64,000 nucleotides of DNA from Promethearchaeota archaeon (GCA_048937405.1 JBHLNF010000001.1:384001-448000), one strand, 5' to 3'; positions 41,526 to 49,257 are shown, counted from the first letter of the stretch. Notes: generated from the sequence alone by a model not told the origin. Program-made: numbers and translations.

Positions 41526-42179
41526 ATGGATACGAATAGACCAAGTTTAGCGAGAATTAAGATTAAGTTTCCAGATCAGATATGGATTTCTGAAATTTTT
41601 AATAACTATCCGGATATAAAAATGGAAATTTCCCACTTTCTACCTTATGATCTTGAGGAATCCATTGGAAATAGTCTAATTGAAATATTACATTATGATA
41701 TCGATTCCATTATAGAAGAGATAAAAAATCATCCTTCTGTCTTCGAGTTAAGTATATTAGAGAAGGAAGAAAATAAAGTTAAATTTAATGTGAAAACAAA
41801 AGATCCATATTTATTATATGCTATAATAAAATGTGGAGTTTTAGTGAACTTTCCAGTAAGAGTGGAAGAAGGATATGCATATTGGAGACTAATTTCAAGT
41901 AGGGACAGGATAGATCAACTCTTAACTCTTTTTGAAGAGAAAAATATTAGTTATGATTTGTTAAGAATTGGTGTATCACCATATACTATTGAAGATGATA
42001 AAAGTAAATTAACTTTTGATGAATCAAATATCCTTGATAAAGCTATTTCTTCAGGTTTCTTTGAAATTCCAAGAAAAATATCTTTAGAAGAATTAGCTAA
42101 CGAATTGGGCAAATCTAAGTCAGCGCTATCAGTAATGCTTAGAAAAATAATCAAAAAGAAAGTCTTATTTGAGAAATAA
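41526..42179 (+). CDS. Bat/HTH_10-type transcriptional regulator
   Basis: C-terminal GFFEIPRKISLEELANELGKSKS. Confidence 0.88.
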   Translation: MDTNRPSLARIKIKFPDQIWISEIFNNYPDIKMEISHFLPYDLEESIGNSLIEILHYDIDSIIEEIKNHPSVFELSILEKEENKVKFNVKTKDPYLLYAIIKCGVLVNFPVRVEEGYAYWRLISSRDRIDQLLTLFEEKNISYDLLRIGVSPYTIEDDKSKLTFDESNILDKAISSGFFEIPRKISLEELANELGKSKSALSVMLRKIIKKKVLFEK

Positions 42180-42203
42180 TTAATAAGAAATACAAAAAAA
42201 AAG

Positions 42204-43018
42204 TTATACCCATTCTTCTTTTAAAATATTTCCTTTTATACCTACGACAACTAATTTAATTGGAACTTTTCTACTTGCTCGTTTAGTCGCTTCTTGAGCT
42301 AAAGCTAATAGACCAGAACAACAAGGAACTTCCATAATAACAACTGTAAGTGTATTTATTTTTGCATCATCAATTAGAGTCTTTATTTTTTCTATATACA
42401 CTTCTTTGCCTTGGTCGAGTTTGGGACAAGCTATTGCGATTGACTTTTGTTTCATGAAATCTCTATGAAAATCCCCATATGAAAATCCTACACAATCTGC
42501 TGAAAGCAATACATCAGCTCCTTGGTAATAAGGTGCTCGAGGATTAATTAAATGCATTTGAACAGGCCATTGTCTTAACGCAGAAGGGATTGTTCCTGAT
42601 ATTTCTGTTTGTGTTTCTGGTCCCTCAAAAACCATTGTTTGAGCAGAAGGACAACCACAATGAGAGTTATTATCAGAAAGAATTTCCTGCATTTGTCCCA
42701 TTTTAGTTTTTTCATTTTGTTTCATAGATTCTAAATGTTTCTCAACAGCCTCCTCATCAAATTCTAAAGCTTCCCTTTCAATTATTTCAAGTGCCCCCTC
42801 AGGACAACCAGAAATGCATGCTCCAAGTCCATCACAGAAAACGTCGTTTATTACCCTCGCTTTTCCGTCGATAACTGCGAGCGCGCCTTTTATGCTATAT
42901 AAATCATTCTTTATATTACTGCACAGTCGACTACGCAATTACCACATCCAGTACATAGATCTTCATCAATCTTGATTATTTTTCTTTTTAATAATTTTTG
43001 TTGTTTTACTTCAGTCAT
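42204..43018 (-). CDS. 4Fe-4S ferredoxin-domain protein (FrdX-like), split gene: exon 1 43018..42919, exon 2 42889..42204, 261 aa when joined
   Basis: Exon 1 MTEVK...IKIDEDLCTGCGNCVVDCA joins EGALAVIDGKA...CDGLGACISGCP...QWPVQ...ACPKLD...MEVPCC; joined length 786 nt is in frame. Confidence 0.9.
42890..42918 (-). other. Predicted 29-nt BHB-type intron (UAAUAUAAAGAAUGAUUUAUAUAGCAUAA)
   Basis: GUGC/GCAU 4-bp helix, bulges AG|U and AA|A, internal AUAUAAA/UUUAUAU stem; in-frame UAA inside; excision gives GCA GAA GGC. Confidence 0.85.
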
Positions 43019-43053
43019 GATTATATCAAATGGATTTGGCTATATATTTTTGA

Positions 43054-43068
43054 TTTCGAACATGTTCA
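43054..43068. promoter_or_regulatory. Operator-like site TTTCGAACATGTTCA (palindromic core GAACATGTTC)
   Basis: About 35 nt upstream of the split 4Fe-4S gene; exact reverse complement occurs at 47025..47039. Confidence 0.65.
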
Positions 43069-43134
43069 TAGGATATTAAAATGCAATTATAAACATTGTA
43101 AAAGAGATGACACAAAAAATTAAAAAAAAGAATA

Positions 43135-44502
43135 TTAAGATTTGATATAATAATCATATTTTTTTTTAATCAATATAGCAATGGTTACACTTAACACTGC
43201 AACAATCAGGACTAAAATATAACCTGGAATTTCAGAACTTGGTGTAGCGAGTCCCCCATCTGTAATAATCCAAGAAAAGTTAGTAATGATAAATTGTTTT
43301 GCATTTTCGGAAGCATTGCTATATTTTGAATTACCTGCATTAAAGTTTACGTTAGGTTGTAAGGGTAATTGCGACCAGCCTAATAATAAATTATCATAGT
43401 TGGATGTTGACAATTTAACTTTATAGAACATATCTGTCATATCTGTCACTCTCGAAACATTCCAGCTACCGAGGGGCTGGTTGAATGAAGACGTCCAGGA
43501 GAACATGTAAGCCATATTTGTCACTCTTGAAACGTTCCAGTTATCGAGGGGCTGGTTAAATGAAGTATCTGAAAACATAGATTCCATATTTGTCACTCTC
43601 GAGACATCCCAATTATTGATGGGTTGGTTAAATGAATCAGCTGATAGGAACATCCCTTGCATATTTGTCACGATCCAGACATCCCAGTCACTGATGGGCT
43701 GGTTGAATGAATTAGCCATGTAAAACATAAGTTCCATGTCATTTACGCTCGAAACATCCCAACTTCCGATCGGCTGGTTGAAGGAATCGGCCCCCCGAAA
43801 CATAGCACTCATATCTCTAACACTTGAGACGTCCCAGCTTCCGATGGGTTGGTTGAAGGAATGAGCATTATAGAACATATTACTCATGTCTGTTACATTC
43901 GAGACATCCCATCCGTTCATACTATCACTATCACCGAGATTAGGGCAATACCAAAAAGCTCCATGTAATATAGTAGTCCCCCTTAAATCCAAATTATCAG
44001 TTGCAGTAAGTTCTAGATTTTTACAACCATAAAAATAATGCCCCGAATTTCCTAATCGTAAAGATCCCCATTGTTTGATATCAATTATCTTTAACCGATC
44101 TCCTTCATCATTAAAACACCACCCAATAATCATTCCTGTGATCGTAATGGTGTAAACCCCTTCTGATGCATACGTATGTAAAATGTTAGGGTCATTGAAA
44201 AGCGTGATTAGATCGCTGTTTCCATCGCCCCAAAAAACTGTAAAATCATAGTTACCATCCCATTGTAGTGGTAATTTCACTTGATTACTGTTGCTGGAAT
44301 CCGAGCTTGTCTTTGTTGTATCCCAGACTGATATAAAATCCATTGGATCTGATGTAATAGGTTTAAGAAATTCACATTTAGTAGTTATTAGCTTTTGCTC
44401 GTGAAATAGATATGTAAATACCGAAAAGGTCACAATTGTCAAAGAAAATAATATTATCGTTGCACTTAATTTAACTGATTTGAATTTCATTAATCTAAAC
44501 AC
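43135..44502 (-). CDS. Surface protein with PKD-like domain, DUF285 repeats and IPGY-TM-basic C-terminal anchor
   Basis: VFWGDG...HTY; repeats FNQPIGSWDVSSVxDMxxMF; EIPGY + TM + KKK. Confidence 0.9.
   Translation of the reverse strand: MFRLMKFKSVKLSATIILFSLTIVTFSVFTYLFHEQKLITTKCEFLKPITSDPMDFISVWDTTKTSSDSSNSNQVKLPLQWDGNYDFTVFWGDGNSDLITLFNDPNILHTYASEGVYTITITGMIIGWCFNDEGDRLKIIDIKQWGSLRLGNSGHYFYGCKNLELTATDNLDLRGTTILHGAFWYCPNLGDSDSMNGWDVSNVTDMSNMFYNAHSFNQPIGSWDVSSVRDMSAMFRGADSFNQPIGSWDVSSVNDMELMFYMANSFNQPISDWDVWIVTNMQGMFLSADSFNQPINNWDVSRVTNMESMFSDTSFNQPLDNWNVSRVTNMAYMFSWTSSFNQPLGSWNVSRVTDMTDMFYKVKLSTSNYDNLLLGWSQLPLQPNVNFNAGNSKYSNASENAKQFIITNFSWIITDGGLATPSSEIPGYILVLIVAVLSVTIAILIKKKYDYYIKS
43430..43920 (-). 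repeat. About 6-7 intragenic tandem repeats of about 75 nt (DUF285 units)
   Basis: Recurring ggttgaa/ggttaaa...gagacatccca-like units; boundaries approximate. Confidence 0.8.
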
Positions 44503-44865
44503 ATTTTCTCATTAATTTTTTTTACATTTTTGTATTTCTTAAGTTAAATTATATCTATACCTTTCCTAAATAAAAAAATATCGAATTTGTGAGAACAGAG
44601 AATATCAATAAATTTTATACATTTAAAACTATAAACCTAGATTTTATAAAAAGTTCCTACAGAAATAAAAAAGAAAAATTATGATAAGAAACATAAGAAT
44701 TTATGTATTCATTTTAATCTTAAGTATGTGTTACGCCACTTTATAAGTAAATTTTCCTTAATTAGATATTATCTTAATAAATCAAATTGAATAGATAAAA
44801 TACAATAAAAAGAGATAAAAGATAAAATAACGGAAGATTTTAAAATAATTGAAGTAACTAATGTT

Positions 44866-45015
44866 ATGAAGGCTGGTAGAACCGTTAAGATAAAAATTTG
44901 GGAAGAATTCATTGAAATTGCGAAAAATAATAAAGTTGATAAAGTCTATAAATATGGTAAATTGCATTTTATGCTCCTTAGAGATGGAATTTATCAAATA
45001 AAAAAGAAAAAATAA
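44866..45015 (+). CDS. Small basic hypothetical protein, absent from ORF track
   Basis: MKAGRTVKIKIWEEFIEIAK...; frame open back past ATA 44827; converges on the cooS end. Confidence 0.45.
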   Translation: MKAGRTVKIKIWEEFIEIAKNNKVDKVYKYGKLHFMLLRDGIYQIKKKK

Positions 45016-45043
45016 AAAAAAATATAAATCTAAAGTAAAGATA

Positions 45044-46948
45044 TTAAATACCTAATTTTCTCCTATTCTTTTCAATGTGAGTTAACATCGCATCTACAGC
45101 GTGAATTGGATCAGTTTCGACATGTAAAATTCCACCTGTTAAATCTTTGCAATCTTCAGTTAGAAGTTTTACTAAATCAGCACCTCCAGTAACTGTAGGT
45201 ATTGGATTGACATAAGTATATAGACCAAACGCTAGGGCAAATATTGCATCGATCGTCGCTTTTTGTTCCATGTATTCTGGAGCCGCAGCTATTACTGGTA
45301 AATCAGGAATTGGTACACCACCAAGTGCTGCAGAAATTATTCCTATCAAATCAGCAACTCTTCCTGTATCTGTACATGTTCCGTAGCTAAGAACAGGGGG
45401 AATTCCTAATTTTTCACAAACTGCTTTTAAACCAGGACCTGCCAATTCCTTTGCTTCTGGTAAACATAATCCTCCTACTTGCAATGCCCCATTTCCACAA
45501 CCCATTGATAATACCAAGACATCTCTTTTGATTAATTCTTTAGCTACTTGAATTGTATGCACGTCTTGTCCATAATCCCTAAGCGTTGTGCAGGATACCA
45601 GTCCTGCTACACCTCGTATGGTACCATTCTTAATTACTTCGAGCAATGGTTCAAGTGTACCTCCAAGAGCAGTAAGTATACTCTCACTAGAAAAACCCAC
45701 GACCGCTTCATTTAAATCTAATCCTGTTATAGGTTCAATATTTGCTTTACGCTCTTTAAAATTATCAATCGCCATTTGTAGTAATGTCGCGGCTTGTTCT
45801 TCAGCTTTATCTGGCTTATAATCTACCCTTTCAGTAATACCTTCAAAAGCTACAACTTCAGAAACTGGAACTAGTTTGAATTTATATTTCTCTGCATATA
45901 TAGGATCAATTGGCATACAACAATTCATATCACAGATAAATGCATCAATACAACCACTTGCCAAAATCGCCTCTTGCATTATCCAATTTCCTGTAAATCC
46001 ATAAAAAACGTCATCCATTTCCCATCTTTGTATCATTTCTTGTCCAGTCTCGATATTTGCAATTATTCTCAATCCTTTTGCACCAACTGCTTTTGCTTTT
46101 TCTTGCCATTCAGACTTTCTAGCCAGTTGGACCATCGCAAATCCTAAAAATGGTTCATGCCCATTTGGAAGAATATTTACATAATCAGGATCTAATACAC
46201 CTAGGTTAACTCTCATTTTATGTGGTCTTGGAATATTGAATAAGATATCTTGAGTAAATTCATTAACAATTTGACTTTGATATGCCATTGCTATCCCTAA
46301 TCTCATAGCCTTGAGGGCTAAACTTGCATAATATCCATCTACATTTGTTAGACAAGAGCTTGTTGAAAACATCATTTCACTATATAATCCGCCAGGAAAA
46401 ATTCCTAATTTTCTCCATACCTCCTGTCTTTCTTTCGGTGCTAGTTTCTCAACAATTTTGCTTTTCTCATCATAAGGGATATTAAAATCTTCCTTTACAA
46501 AATAATATAGTCTTAGAGCAATATCTTTTTCTTGACCAGACGTGTCTAAACCAAGACGTTCAGCAAAAACTTTTAGTTTCTCAGGTTCGGAGATTTTAAA
46601 TGGGGTTTTACCCTCTACTGTAGCTTTTAAGGTTTTCAAAGTTGTTTCAGTATGATAATGGTAAGTAGATGCTCCCATAACATTCCTAAGAAGCATCATA
46701 CGCATTGCCATACCATCTGCTGTAATTCCACAGACTCCACGTTTATCTATTGATGAATCTGCTCTACAAGGACCATTTGAACATAGATCACAACGTGCAC
46801 CTTTTAAACAAAATGGACATCGTTTATCGGGATCTCCTCCAAATCCCTGTGCTTCAAAACGATCCCAAATATTATTCATACCATCTTTTTTAATCCTTTC
46901 ATAAACTTTTTGGACGGATTTATGATAAGAGATTCTATCATCTTCCAT
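45044..46948 (-). CDS. cooS: Ni-CODH family catalytic subunit with atypical C-cluster ligands
   Basis: CDLCSNGPC...GVCG B-cluster, NGHEP, DMNC, VSCT, MGCG, GTCTD, EQKA. Confidence 0.92.
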   Translation of the reverse strand: MEDDRISYHKSVQKVYERIKKDGMNNIWDRFEAQGFGGDPDKRCPFCLKGARCDLCSNGPCRADSSIDKRGVCGITADGMAMRMMLLRNVMGASTYHYHTETTLKTLKATVEGKTPFKISEPEKLKVFAERLGLDTSGQEKDIALRLYYFVKEDFNIPYDEKSKIVEKLAPKERQEVWRKLGIFPGGLYSEMMFSTSSCLTNVDGYYASLALKAMRLGIAMAYQSQIVNEFTQDILFNIPRPHKMRVNLGVLDPDYVNILPNGHEPFLGFAMVQLARKSEWQEKAKAVGAKGLRIIANIETGQEMIQRWEMDDVFYGFTGNWIMQEAILASGCIDAFICDMNCCMPIDPIYAEKYKFKLVPVSEVVAFEGITERVDYKPDKAEEQAATLLQMAIDNFKERKANIEPITGLDLNEAVVGFSSESILTALGGTLEPLLEVIKNGTIRGVAGLVSCTTLRDYGQDVHTIQVAKELIKRDVLVLSMGCGNGALQVGGLCLPEAKELAGPGLKAVCEKLGIPPVLSYGTCTDTGRVADLIGIISAALGGVPIPDLPVIAAAPEYMEQKATIDAIFALAFGLYTYVNPIPTVTGGADLVKLLTEDCKDLTGGILHVETDPIHAVDAMLTHIEKNRRKLGI

Positions 46949-47024
46949 AAATAATCACTTCTCTCTAATTTTTCTAAAAATTGTAGTATTTAACAAATAA
47001 ACTGATTTAATTTAAAATTGTTGT

Positions 47025-47039
47025 TGAACATGTTCGAAA
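47025..47039. promoter_or_regulatory. Operator-like site TGAACATGTTCGAAA
   Basis: Lies between divergent cooS and oxidoreductase genes; reverse complement of 43054..43068. Confidence 0.65.
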
Positions 47040-47106
47040 GGAATTTACTTAAAGATTACATTATATAATAAAAACTTTAATATAAAATGTAAAAACTAGT
47101 TATGCA

Positions 47107-48459
47107 ATGAAAGTTGTAATAATAGGGAATAATGTTGCTGGGACATTCACCGCCCAGAACCTCAGAAATCTTAACAATGATATTGAAATAGATATATATA
47201 CCCAAGAAAGATACCCTTACTATACAAGAGTCAATCTACCAGAATTAATATCTGAAAAAGTAACAATTGATGATTTAATTGTTTTTAAAGAAGATTGGTA
47301 CAAAAATAAGCGTCTAAATTTATATCTAGAAAAAAGAGTTAATACTCTCAATCTAAGTAATAAAACATTACAGATAGAAGGGGAAAATGATCCGATCATC
47401 TATGATAAACTTGTTTTAGCACTTGGAAGTACTCCAAATATTCCTCCTATTAAAAATGCTGTTGAAATGAAAAATGAAAACAAGGGATTATTTACATTAA
47501 GAAGTATTGATGATGCTTTAGACATAAAAGATTTTATCAAAAATAAGAATGCTAAAAATGCTATCATTATAGGAGGGGGTTTACTCGGTTTAGAATTAGC
47601 AAATCAAATAAATAATACCAATTTAATGACAACAGTAGTAGAATTTTTTCCCCGATTATTACCAAGACAGTTAGATATTGAATGTGGTGCGATGCTAAAA
47701 GAAGAAATCGAAAGTAGAGGAATTAAGGTTGTTTTAGATGCAGTCACAGAAGAAATTCTTGGAAATAGTGTAGTTTCGGGAATTAAATTAAAAAATGGAA
47801 AAACAATAAATGGGGATCTTGTATTAATTCAGGCTGGCATTAGACCTACAATTGATTTGGCTAAAAATGCTGGATTAAATACAAATAGAGGAATAATGGT
47901 TGATGATTTTTTACAAACCAGCGAAAAGGATATCTTTGCTGTAGGAGATTGTATAGAATACAAAGATCAAATATGGGGTATTATTCCAGCGTGCATGGAA
48001 CAATCAAAAATTGCAGCAGCTTCATTACTTGGATTAAAAAAAGTGGATTACAAGGGGACTATACCGAAAAATACCCTTAAAATAGTAGGATTAGATTTAA
48101 CCTCGATAGGAATGATAAATCCTGACAAGGAACAAACGGGTGGTTGGGAAATCCTAAGAAGGGCTGATAAGAAGGATTGTTGTTATCAAAAATTAGTATT
48201 AAAAGATAATAAGTTAAAAGGAGCAATATTATTTGGAGAAAATAAAATAATGTCTTACGTATATAATAAAATGGAAGAAAATGTTGATAAGGCTGAACTT
48301 AAAAAATTGTTAGATTTAAGTACTTATACTTGTAATAAGTGTGGTTTAGAATATGATGAGGCCGAAATGGGTATTCTCTTTGAGGATTTACCTCCTGATT
48401 GGAAATGTCCAAATTGCAAATGTACCAAAAAAGAATTTGTAGGAAATAGCAGTATCTAA
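47107..48459 (+). CDS. NAD(P)H:rubredoxin oxidoreductase-like flavoprotein with C-terminal rubredoxin domain
   Basis: IIGGGLLGLE, FAVGDC; terminal CNKCG...FEDLPPDWKCPNC. Confidence 0.9.
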   Translation: MKVVIIGNNVAGTFTAQNLRNLNNDIEIDIYTQERYPYYTRVNLPELISEKVTIDDLIVFKEDWYKNKRLNLYLEKRVNTLNLSNKTLQIEGENDPIIYDKLVLALGSTPNIPPIKNAVEMKNENKGLFTLRSIDDALDIKDFIKNKNAKNAIIIGGGLLGLELANQINNTNLMTTVVEFFPRLLPRQLDIECGAMLKEEIESRGIKVVLDAVTEEILGNSVVSGIKLKNGKTINGDLVLIQAGIRPTIDLAKNAGLNTNRGIMVDDFLQTSEKDIFAVGDCIEYKDQIWGIIPACMEQSKIAAASLLGLKKVDYKGTIPKNTLKIVGLDLTSIGMINPDKEQTGGWEILRRADKKDCCYQKLVLKDNKLKGAILFGENKIMSYVYNKMEENVDKAELKKLLDLSTYTCNKCGLEYDEAEMGILFEDLPPDWKCPNCKCTKKEFVGNSSI

Positions 48460-48485
48460 TTATATTAGAAAAGAGGTGGTTATAG

Positions 48486-48632
48486 ATTTCAGTATATCGC
48501 TGTAAGAGATGTAATTATCTTTATATAAATGAAGAAAAGAAGATACCTTTTGAAGAATTAGATGAAAATGAATATAAATGTCCTAAATGTCGTTCTTCAA
48601 AAAAATTCTTTGTTAAAAAGGAAATTCAATAA
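48486..48632 (+). CDS. Rubredoxin-like protein (48 aa), probable ATT start
   Basis: ISVYRCKRCNYLY...PFEELDENEYKCPKCRSSKKFF; GAGGTGG upstream; in-frame TAG immediately before ATT. Confidence 0.75.
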   Translation: MSVYRCKRCNYLYINEEKKIPFEELDENEYKCPKCRSSKKFFVKKEIQ

Positions 48633-48888
48633 AAAACAAAAAATTGATTAGTTTATAAAATTCATTAGCTTATAAAACCAAAAATAACAAAATCTTCTTT
48701 ATTTTATGTAATATACTTACCCTTTATTTCAATTTAATAGATTTTATTCAAAATAATAGGTTAGATTATTATTTGTTTAATCTAATTGGATCAATTTATA
48801 AAATATTAAATTAATATATTTAATATATTTTCAATTTCAAACCATATAATCAAATTCTACAACTTAAAATTAAAAGGATGTGTTAAAT

Positions 48889-49058
48889 TTGGCAAAATGG
48901 GAATGTCAAGCTTGTGGATATGTTTATGATGAAGAAGCTGAAGGTACAAAATTTGAAGATTTACCAGACGATTGGACTTGTCCTGTATGTGGCGTAGTCA
49001 TGATAGGATCTCCCATTATGGCGTAAGAAAGGACATGTTCGAGAAGATTGAAGGTTAA
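48889..49058 (+). CDS. Rubredoxin, split gene: exon 1 48889..48997, exon 2 49027..49058, 46 aa when joined
   Basis: Joined product [46 protein letters not shown]; TTG start. Confidence 0.92.
48998..49026 (+). other. Predicted 29-nt BHB-type intron (UCAUGAUAGGAUCUCCCAUUAUGGCGUAA)
   Basis: GCGU/GCGU 4-bp helix (2 GC + 2 GU), bulges AG|U and AA|G, internal CAUGAU/AUUAUG stem; excision gives GTA GGA AAG. Confidence 0.85.
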
Positions 49059-49257
49059 ATAGTATAATTTATAATTAAAATAGTTTTTTTTTTAAATTTT
49101 TTAAATTCTAATATTAAATTAATAGTAATTTTGCATAAGATTTGATTTCTAAATCTATAGAAATAAATTTATTTGAGATTTATATTAAAAATCATATAAA
49201 TTAAAGATTTAATAATACTATCAGCCTAAAATTCTTTTGAAACAATTTTTTATTTAA

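Follow-up and report, generated by a model that had tools for sequence, protein, structure and literature searches.

In a 64,000-nt stretch of the genome of a Promethearchaeota archaeon (GCA_048937405.1, JBHLNF010000001.1:384001-448000; called the window here, with positions counted from its first base), we observed two genes on opposite strands, one encoding a Fer4-domain protein and the other a rubredoxin, each broken by an insert of 29 nt. It is very likely that both inserts are mRNA introns of the bulge-helix-bulge (BHB) type, located within coding sequences and spliced by the endonuclease EndA and the ligase RtcB. According to the mechanism proposed, four exon bases upstream of the insert would pair in the pre-mRNA with four bases near its 3' end; the resulting 4-bp helix would have a 3-nt bulge next to it on each of its strands and would be supported by a hairpin within the intron and by a helix between the two exons; EndA (two paralogues) would cleave each bulge past its second base; and RtcB would join the exons into a single frame, giving a normal Fe-S protein and a normal rubredoxin. 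From the inserts, their joints, the RNA structure, the selection on the host genes and the enzyme genes of the genome, we infer that this cutting and joining takes place in the cell.

The Fer4-domain gene lies on the minus strand (43018-42204). Its exon 1 (42919..43018) starts with ATG at 43018 and consists of 33 codons plus 1 nt; the 33 aa contain a 4Fe-4S motif (CxxCxxCxxxC) matched by the Pfam families Fer4_6 and Fer4. The frame breaks one base into codon 34, and the remaining protein is found in a different frame. The 29-nt insert (42890..42918) is in phase 1 and begins 4 nt past the last Cys codon of the motif; if it is retained, its third codon is an in-frame TAA. Exon 2 (42204..42889) comprises 2 nt, 227 codons (42887-42207) and the stop codon, and encodes a second Fe-S motif and a PF27217 domain. 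Excision of the insert gives a protein of 261 aa that reads CTGCGNCVVDCAEGALAVIDGKARV across the joint in the program translation (also given as DCAEGALAVIDGKARV).

The rubredoxin gene, the only canonical one of this genome, lies on the plus strand (48880-49058). Exon 1 (48880..48997; start codon GTG at 48880 or TTG at 48889) matches the Pfam Rubredoxin family (E 3e-13) and ends with CPVCGV plus 1 nt. Its 29-nt insert (48998..49026) is also in phase 1, begins 7 nt past the last Cys codon of CPVC, and places a TAA in frame with its final three bases if retained. Exon 2 (49027..49058) has 2 nt followed by KDMFEKIEG and a stop codon, a tail shared by 26 intron-less orthologues, and excision of the insert gives a canonical rubredoxin with CPVCGVGKDMF at the joint. 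The initial annotation had described two 29-nt, phase-1 inserts on opposite strands, each near the last Cys codon and each bringing a UAA if retained, and every one of these details was confirmed in the sequence. The junction peptides predicted for the spliced products are CAEGALAVIDGK for the Fer4 protein and CPVCGVGK for the rubredoxin.

Archaeal EndA cleaves after the second base of each 3-nt bulge of its substrate. The BHB motif of archaeal EndA substrates has been described elsewhere (PMC5829648). That the standard cut rule restores the canonical motifs in both genes, as the initial annotation had it, is borne out by intron-less orthologues, which agree with the predicted joint in both cases. 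Of 30 Fer4-gene orthologues from the same genus, 26 have no interruption and show TGY GCN GAR GGN at exactly the position where the other four have a 29-nt insert; one of the intron-less orthologues (L006) equals the predicted spliced joint of this genome base for base, and the joint after the BHB cut encodes DCAEGAL, as the intron-less orthologues do. Similarly, CGVGKDMFEK is found in all 26 intron-less rubredoxin orthologues. The conserved Glu of the Fer4 protein and the conserved Gly of the rubredoxin are obtained from one register of the 29-nt deletion only, which is that of the BHB cut; a shift by one base gives other residues.

The rubredoxin insert has a direct repeat (GGCGTA) on both sides, and a deletion between the two copies would leave Arg at the position where the orthologues all have Gly. 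As RNA, the GGCGUA at both ends could instead suggest that the RNA stays uncut and that translation either bypasses the 29 nt, like that of phage T4 gene 60, or changes frame. A stop codon soon past the break and a hairpin in the gap also fit such a bypass, the untranslated gap within the coding sequence of gene 60 being likewise short and containing a hairpin and a stop codon. Bypassing in gene 60 needs matched take-off and landing codons, and no pair that would serve was found in either of our genes: the matched GUA codons of the rubredoxin gene lead to Val-Arg-Lys and not to the conserved Val-Gly-Lys, and a hop from GCA to GCA in the Fer4 gene lands before the UAA. With a simple frameshift, the metal-binding motif would contain 9-10 residues foreign to it. 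Moreover, the conserved 4-bp helix between exon and intron, with its bulges, has no role in bypassing. We regard bypass or frameshifting as highly improbable.

The BHB introns we propose instead have a common layout in both genes: a 4-nt helix strand, AG/U, a hairpin, the 4-nt partner strand and AA/R, with the helix partners being GUGC/GCAU in the Fer4 gene and GCGU/GCGU in the rubredoxin gene. Intron bases 24-27 pair with the four exon bases directly upstream of the insert, the intron hairpin has 7-9 bp in both, and flanking helices are present on both sides of the motif in both introns (the exon-exon helix is adjacent to it in the Fer4 gene and distal in the rubredoxin gene). For the Fer4 intron (all on the minus strand), the exon strand of the central helix (GUGC, 42921..42924) pairs with 42895-42892 and is invariant, with all cells paired, in the seven alleles known; the intron hairpin is formed by 42916-42910 with 42903-42897; the 5' bulge with the AG/U cut is at 42920-42918 and the 3' bulge with the AA/A cut at 42891-42889; and the outer exon-exon helix (span 42884..42929; 42929-42925 with 42888-42884) has 88.6% of its cells paired. 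For the rubredoxin intron (all on the plus strand), the exon strand of the 4-bp central helix (GCGU, 48992..48995; found in the minimum-free-energy (MFE) fold and in the alignment) pairs with 49021-49024; the hairpin is formed by 48999-49007 with 49012-49020; the 5' bulge AG/U is at 48996-48998 and the 3' cut site AA/G at 49025-49027, inside an internal loop; and the distal exon-exon helix (span 48979..49035) joins UGUCCU (48979-48984) to AGGACA (49030-49035) in the MFE fold, with 98% of cells paired.

We scored these structures on alignments that covered the 29 intron bases and 20 exon bases to either side, using seven Fer4 alleles and ten rubredoxin alleles. Standard pairs occupy 93.8% of the cells for Fer4 and 88.9% for rubredoxin, as compared to 24-59% and 37-54%, respectively, when the 3' partner is slid. 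Structural covariation among homologous inserts, whose absence the initial annotation had said would count against introns, was found in both: two pairs are changed on both sides in the Fer4 introns (U-A to C-G in three alleles and A-U to G-C in two) and six in the rubredoxin introns (16 cells), a number reached by three out of 500 shuffles (such shuffle statistics, like the codon counts given next, overstate independence as the alleles are related). For example, pair 16-46 of the rubredoxin central helix covaries such that the exon Gly codon GGC occurs with an intron G (C-G, six alleles) and GGU with an A (U-A, four alleles). Synonymous codon choice in the rubredoxin gene is biased as well: Lys is AAG in 10 of 10 intron-bearing alleles vs eight of 26 intron-less ones, Asp is GAC in nine of 10 vs four of 26, and Val is GUA in nine of 10 vs nine of 26, and these sites are the exon positions expected to pair or to lie in a bulge. 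The MFE fold of the Fer4 allele of genome G084 is an exact hBHBh' structure (z -3.5), and the folds of the G029, G074 and G076 alleles are likewise better than those of shuffled sequences (z -2.3 to -2.7).

Several observations, in addition to the relatedness of the alleles, count against our interpretation. First, folding of the two sequences of this genome itself is not significant relative to shuffles (z -0.8 and -1.2), so that the evidence beyond chance for the structure comes from the orthologues. Second, the outer helix of the Fer4 intron contains one A.G mismatch in this genome (it is perfect in G029, G084 and G088). Third, the Fer4 intron has the two 3-nt bulges and the 4-bp helix of a BHB, and the rubredoxin intron has the helix and the 5' bulge; its 3' cut site is in a 7x5 internal loop of the MFE fold with no clean 3-nt bulge. 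As folded, the rubredoxin motif is a relaxed, bulge-helix-loop-like one, and it would require an EndA tolerant of relaxed motifs, a putative property of the enzyme in this lineage. Fourth, a genome scan for the motif in frameshifted genes, which the initial annotation had proposed, was run over the 4.47 Mb of this genome (BHB geometry plus merging of open frames) and showed no excess, its counts being equal to those of control scans in which the 3' partner was placed 1-2 bases out of register; such a scan is powerless at 29% G+C with many close gene boundaries, and misses introns near gene ends. A BHB scan of the 64-kb window with looser limits found nothing further of real appearance. Finally, no RNA runs are listed for positions 42100-49100 of the window.

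The genome encodes the enzymes that the proposed splicing needs. There are two EndA paralogues of 197 and 200 aa (contigs 27 and 8), each with N-terminal and catalytic domains, and one RtcB (E 2e-169). Asgard EndA has been described as an alpha2-beta2 type enzyme with a loop for broad specificity, accepting relaxed motifs (PMC5829648), and the two paralogues found here probably form such an enzyme. Only 14 tRNA genes, nine of them with introns, were recognized by aragorn in the whole genome, whose completeness is scored at 100% (none in the 64-kb window). This low number fits the reported interruption of Asgard tRNA genes, which is so heavy that standard tools miss them (PMC11291895; bioRxiv 10.64898/2026.10.13.758758); most tRNA genes of this genome are probably too interrupted to be recognized, and the intron borders given by aragorn are too unreliable to serve as a comparison set. 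Processing by another route, i.e. by another nuclease and ligase or by self-cleavage, would be compatible with the lack of a canonical bulge at the rubredoxin 3' site and with the enzyme activity of this lineage being a prediction. But the 3-nt bulge, the 4-bp helix and the cut position are the signature of EndA and predict both joints exactly, EndA and RtcB are both encoded, and an Rfam search of the window gave no family match (ribozymes included) and no RNA gene. We therefore consider another route very unlikely.

To trace the history of the two BHB introns, we used pattern searches in 134 genomes of the family, from 13 genera. The Fer4 insert is found in seven of these genomes, in three genera, always at one site and always 29 nt long. 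The rubredoxin insert is shared by this genome with two genomes of a different genus, and these two were the only ones returned by a pattern scan of Bacteria and Archaea in which each species was represented by one genome. Seven further distinct rubredoxin alleles were collected from metagenome contigs and the protein collection, making 10 in total, all with 29 nt at the same site. One of the two other-genus genomes is titled Promethearchaeota archaeon, and because this relative shares the intron, the assignment of the host to the Asgard archaea, made in the initial annotation from the sequence, is sound.

Could the inserts be artefacts of assembly or sequencing? The genome (4.47 Mb, 29% G+C) is a metagenome-assembled draft in 29 contigs, with 100% completeness and 5.7% contamination, which leaves room for errors. 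However, near-identical inserts are present in independent assemblies: the Fer4 intron allele of G001 is identical to that of this genome, the rubredoxin allele of JAZHCH013304631.1 differs from that of this genome at two of 29 bases, and the G076 allele is found on three separate records. An assembly error is excluded on these grounds for practical purposes. In addition, no 29-nt gap or joint is listed at either site in contigs of four DNA runs (a weak point, as the pieces are fragmented and bridging is not shown).

The seven intron-bearing genes are dispersed in a quick maximum-likelihood tree built from 65 orthologues of the Fer4 gene: the nearest neighbours of each are intron-less, and well-supported branches require at least five changes. 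Since the 3' halves of all seven introns are alike, the simplest reading would be one old intron that was repeatedly and cleanly lost; the intron may also have been transferred between Fer4 alleles. The same pattern of scattered presence and clean loss is known for the cbf5 intron (PMC2738675). On the tree, orthologues of genera g1, g27 and g28 are interspersed with one another, and two copies are present in G090, which suggests transfer or paralogy of the Fer4 gene within the family. As a separate observation, the rubredoxin gene of a close relative that shares the Fer4 intron (G026) ends after MGKWECQ and is followed by unrelated sequence (L064:1990-2080, contig C130, minus strand), and this break is a deletion or rearrangement, not an intron.

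That most relatives lack the inserts, that both inserts cause a frameshift and introduce a stop codon, and that a direct repeat flanks the one in the rubredoxin gene would also be expected of inactivating insertions, i.e. young pseudogenes or the traces of a small mobile element that duplicated its target site. This explanation is largely refuted. The same insert is found across genera with the downstream exon open, the helices are maintained by compensatory changes, and removal of the rubredoxin insert between the repeats gives the wrong residue. A genome-wide sequence search found no second copy of either insert; each is unique in the genome, and hence the inserts are not a repeat family. 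The spliced Fer4 frames are intact in seven of seven intron-bearers (250-286 aa) despite 44-47% identity between genera, exon 2 of this gene in its own frame has a ratio of non-synonymous to synonymous substitution rates (dN/dS) of 0.06-0.32 in every computable pair, and the spliced rubredoxins are canonical in all 10 alleles. Each gene is also the sole orthologue found in this genome. Because the spliced frames are intact, exon 2 is under purifying selection and no other orthologue was found, the pseudogene reading fails, and we assign only a very small probability to inactivating insertions of any kind.

The initial annotation had also claimed that gene callers would mis-report both loci, and this is what the public databases contain: at least eight clusters of 240-244-aa products of the Fer4 gene, whose start lies within the intron and which have no Fer4 domain, as well as rubredoxins of 45 aa whose tails are foreign. 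In the protein collection, no protein of the spliced form was found for this strain at 100% identity. The exon-2 frame of the Fer4 gene is open through the insert back to a TTG, which yields the 244-aa product of the databases, so the genes might be truly split, with their parts translated separately or the downstream part translated alone. In that case the 4Fe-4S motif would be divided and the 10 residues of the rubredoxin tail would have no start codon, and some alleles do not have such an upstream start (the 240-aa form); furthermore, the fixed length of 29 nt, the BHB shape and the covariation would all be unexplained. Truly split genes are thus most improbable. The 227-aa C-terminal part of the Fer4 protein (42204-42887, minus strand) is assigned to PF27217 as a precomputed family, and exon 2 had no match to the local copies of Pfam and NCBIfam. 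Orthologues of this gene are named 'ATP-binding protein' by NCBI, a name that looks ill-suited to a Cys-rich redox protein near the CO dehydrogenase gene cooS.

Two more genes of this genome carry inserts with the same helix-and-bulge layout. One is rnhB, with a 29-nt insert between GIDEAGR and GSVLGP (contig C25 ~104540-104610; L084:1440-1510), and the other is the mevalonate kinase gene (mvk), with a 31-nt insert between ILFGE and HFVVYG (contig C17 ~197180-197250; L085:1440-1510). In both, the inserts are inside conserved N-terminal motifs and the family-model matches lack the first 7-10 profile positions. The link to iron and redox proteins drawn in the initial annotation is not supported, given the same kind of insert in these two genes; judging from the four genes, what the host sites share is a conserved, G+C-richer motif and not iron chemistry. 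Seen across the alleles and genes compared, the introns are old, often cleanly lost, and part of a wider set of ~30-nt introns in protein genes of this genome. We also observed that the rnhB and mevalonate kinase inserts open with nearly identical nine bases (AUUUAAUUC), and that the Fer4 and rubredoxin introns differ there. Three of the four introns read have an AG/R exon junction (CAG/A in the Fer4 gene, UAG/G in the rubredoxin gene and CAG/A in rnhB), which recalls the proto-splice site of eukaryotes, in a sample that is very small.

Splicing of HAC1 and XBP1 mRNAs depends on Ire1, which recognises twin stem-loops and is regulated by stress, and the ligation is done by RtcB in animals. The proposed archaeal splicing would resemble it in logic only, as a non-spliceosomal removal of a short, frame-shifting mRNA intron by an endonuclease and an RNA ligase. 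A search of this genome for the Ire1 KEN domain (PF06479) gave no match, the control genomes being silent as well. A regulated, HAC1-like switch, as initially suggested, is not supported: some alleles lack the in-frame UAA and the tails of the unspliced products vary freely between alleles, and hence there is no sign that the unspliced product matters. It is conceivable, though unlikely, that splicing is more than constitutive repair and is a rate-limiting or conditional step, setting the amount of rubredoxin and Fe-S protein via EndA availability or BHB folding, and that the introns are spreading to new AG/R sites; if true, this would make them a regulated, mobile mRNA-intron system of Asgard archaea that predates the spliceosome.

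Rather than the new system for which they were first taken as candidates, the introns appear to be a case of mRNA processing by the known EndA/RtcB pathway, of the sort seen with cbf5. The pre-mRNA of cbf5 (encoding a pseudouridine synthase) contains a BHB intron in Crenarchaeota (Watanabe 2002; Yoshinari 2006; Yokobori 2009, PMC2738675). As with the introns described here, its hosts have a hetero-oligomeric EndA, some lineages carry it and others have cleanly lost it, and annotation pipelines miss it; here, in contrast, the host genes encode an Fe-S protein and a rubredoxin, the lineage is the Asgard superphylum, the length is fixed at 29 nt, and several protein genes of one genome are interrupted. 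The positions are not homologous to that of the cbf5 intron, i.e. these are different introns of the same kind. The kind of intron is thus known, and the mechanism is probably the same, although splicing of cbf5 was shown by experiment whereas that of the Fer4 and rubredoxin introns is predicted from sequence comparison.

Archaeal tRNA genes offer a second comparison: their BHB introns share the motif, the cut rule, the enzymes and a similar size range, and the same lineages have many tRNA introns at non-canonical positions. The exons here, however, are protein-coding, so that a helix strand must satisfy codons too, and the constraint is seen at synonymous sites. A third is the HVO_1309 mRNA of Haloferax volcanii, which has a BHB intron in its 5' untranslated region and is an EndA substrate in vivo and in vitro (PMC7714728); in both cases an mRNA is the (here predicted) substrate of EndA, but the HVO_1309 intron is in an untranslated leader and does not interrupt the reading frame. 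The same paper, from 2020, gives cbf5 as the only other case of a BHB intron in an archaeal mRNA, and the searchable papers on Asgard archaea treat tRNA introns only. Within the searchable literature, BHB introns in coding sequences are those of crenarchaeal cbf5 only; what is new here is the host genes, the lineage and the presence of several interrupted protein genes in one genome.

Two other features of the window were observed. Just downstream of a gene similar to NADH:rubredoxin reductase, a small rubredoxin-like or zinc-ribbon frame (48478-48632, plus strand; CxxC...CPKC) has no ATG, GTG or TTG; it opens with ATT after a TAG, behind a GGAGG-like site, and the same arrangement is found in relatives. 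On the minus strand, 43135-44502 encodes a membrane-anchored protein of 455 aa with ~10 tandem repeats of ~26 residues (FNQPI..WDVS.V..M..MF), and metagenome contigs contain many joints and length variants in this repeat region.

If our interpretation is true, the prokaryotes most closely related to eukaryotes have several protein genes whose RNA needs to be cut and rejoined before translation. Since the database entries for these loci are truncated products, too few intact genes would be counted when metabolism is reconstructed from Asgard genomes. And with introns that persist for long and are cleanly lost, the gain and loss of introns in Asgard protein genes would become directly testable.

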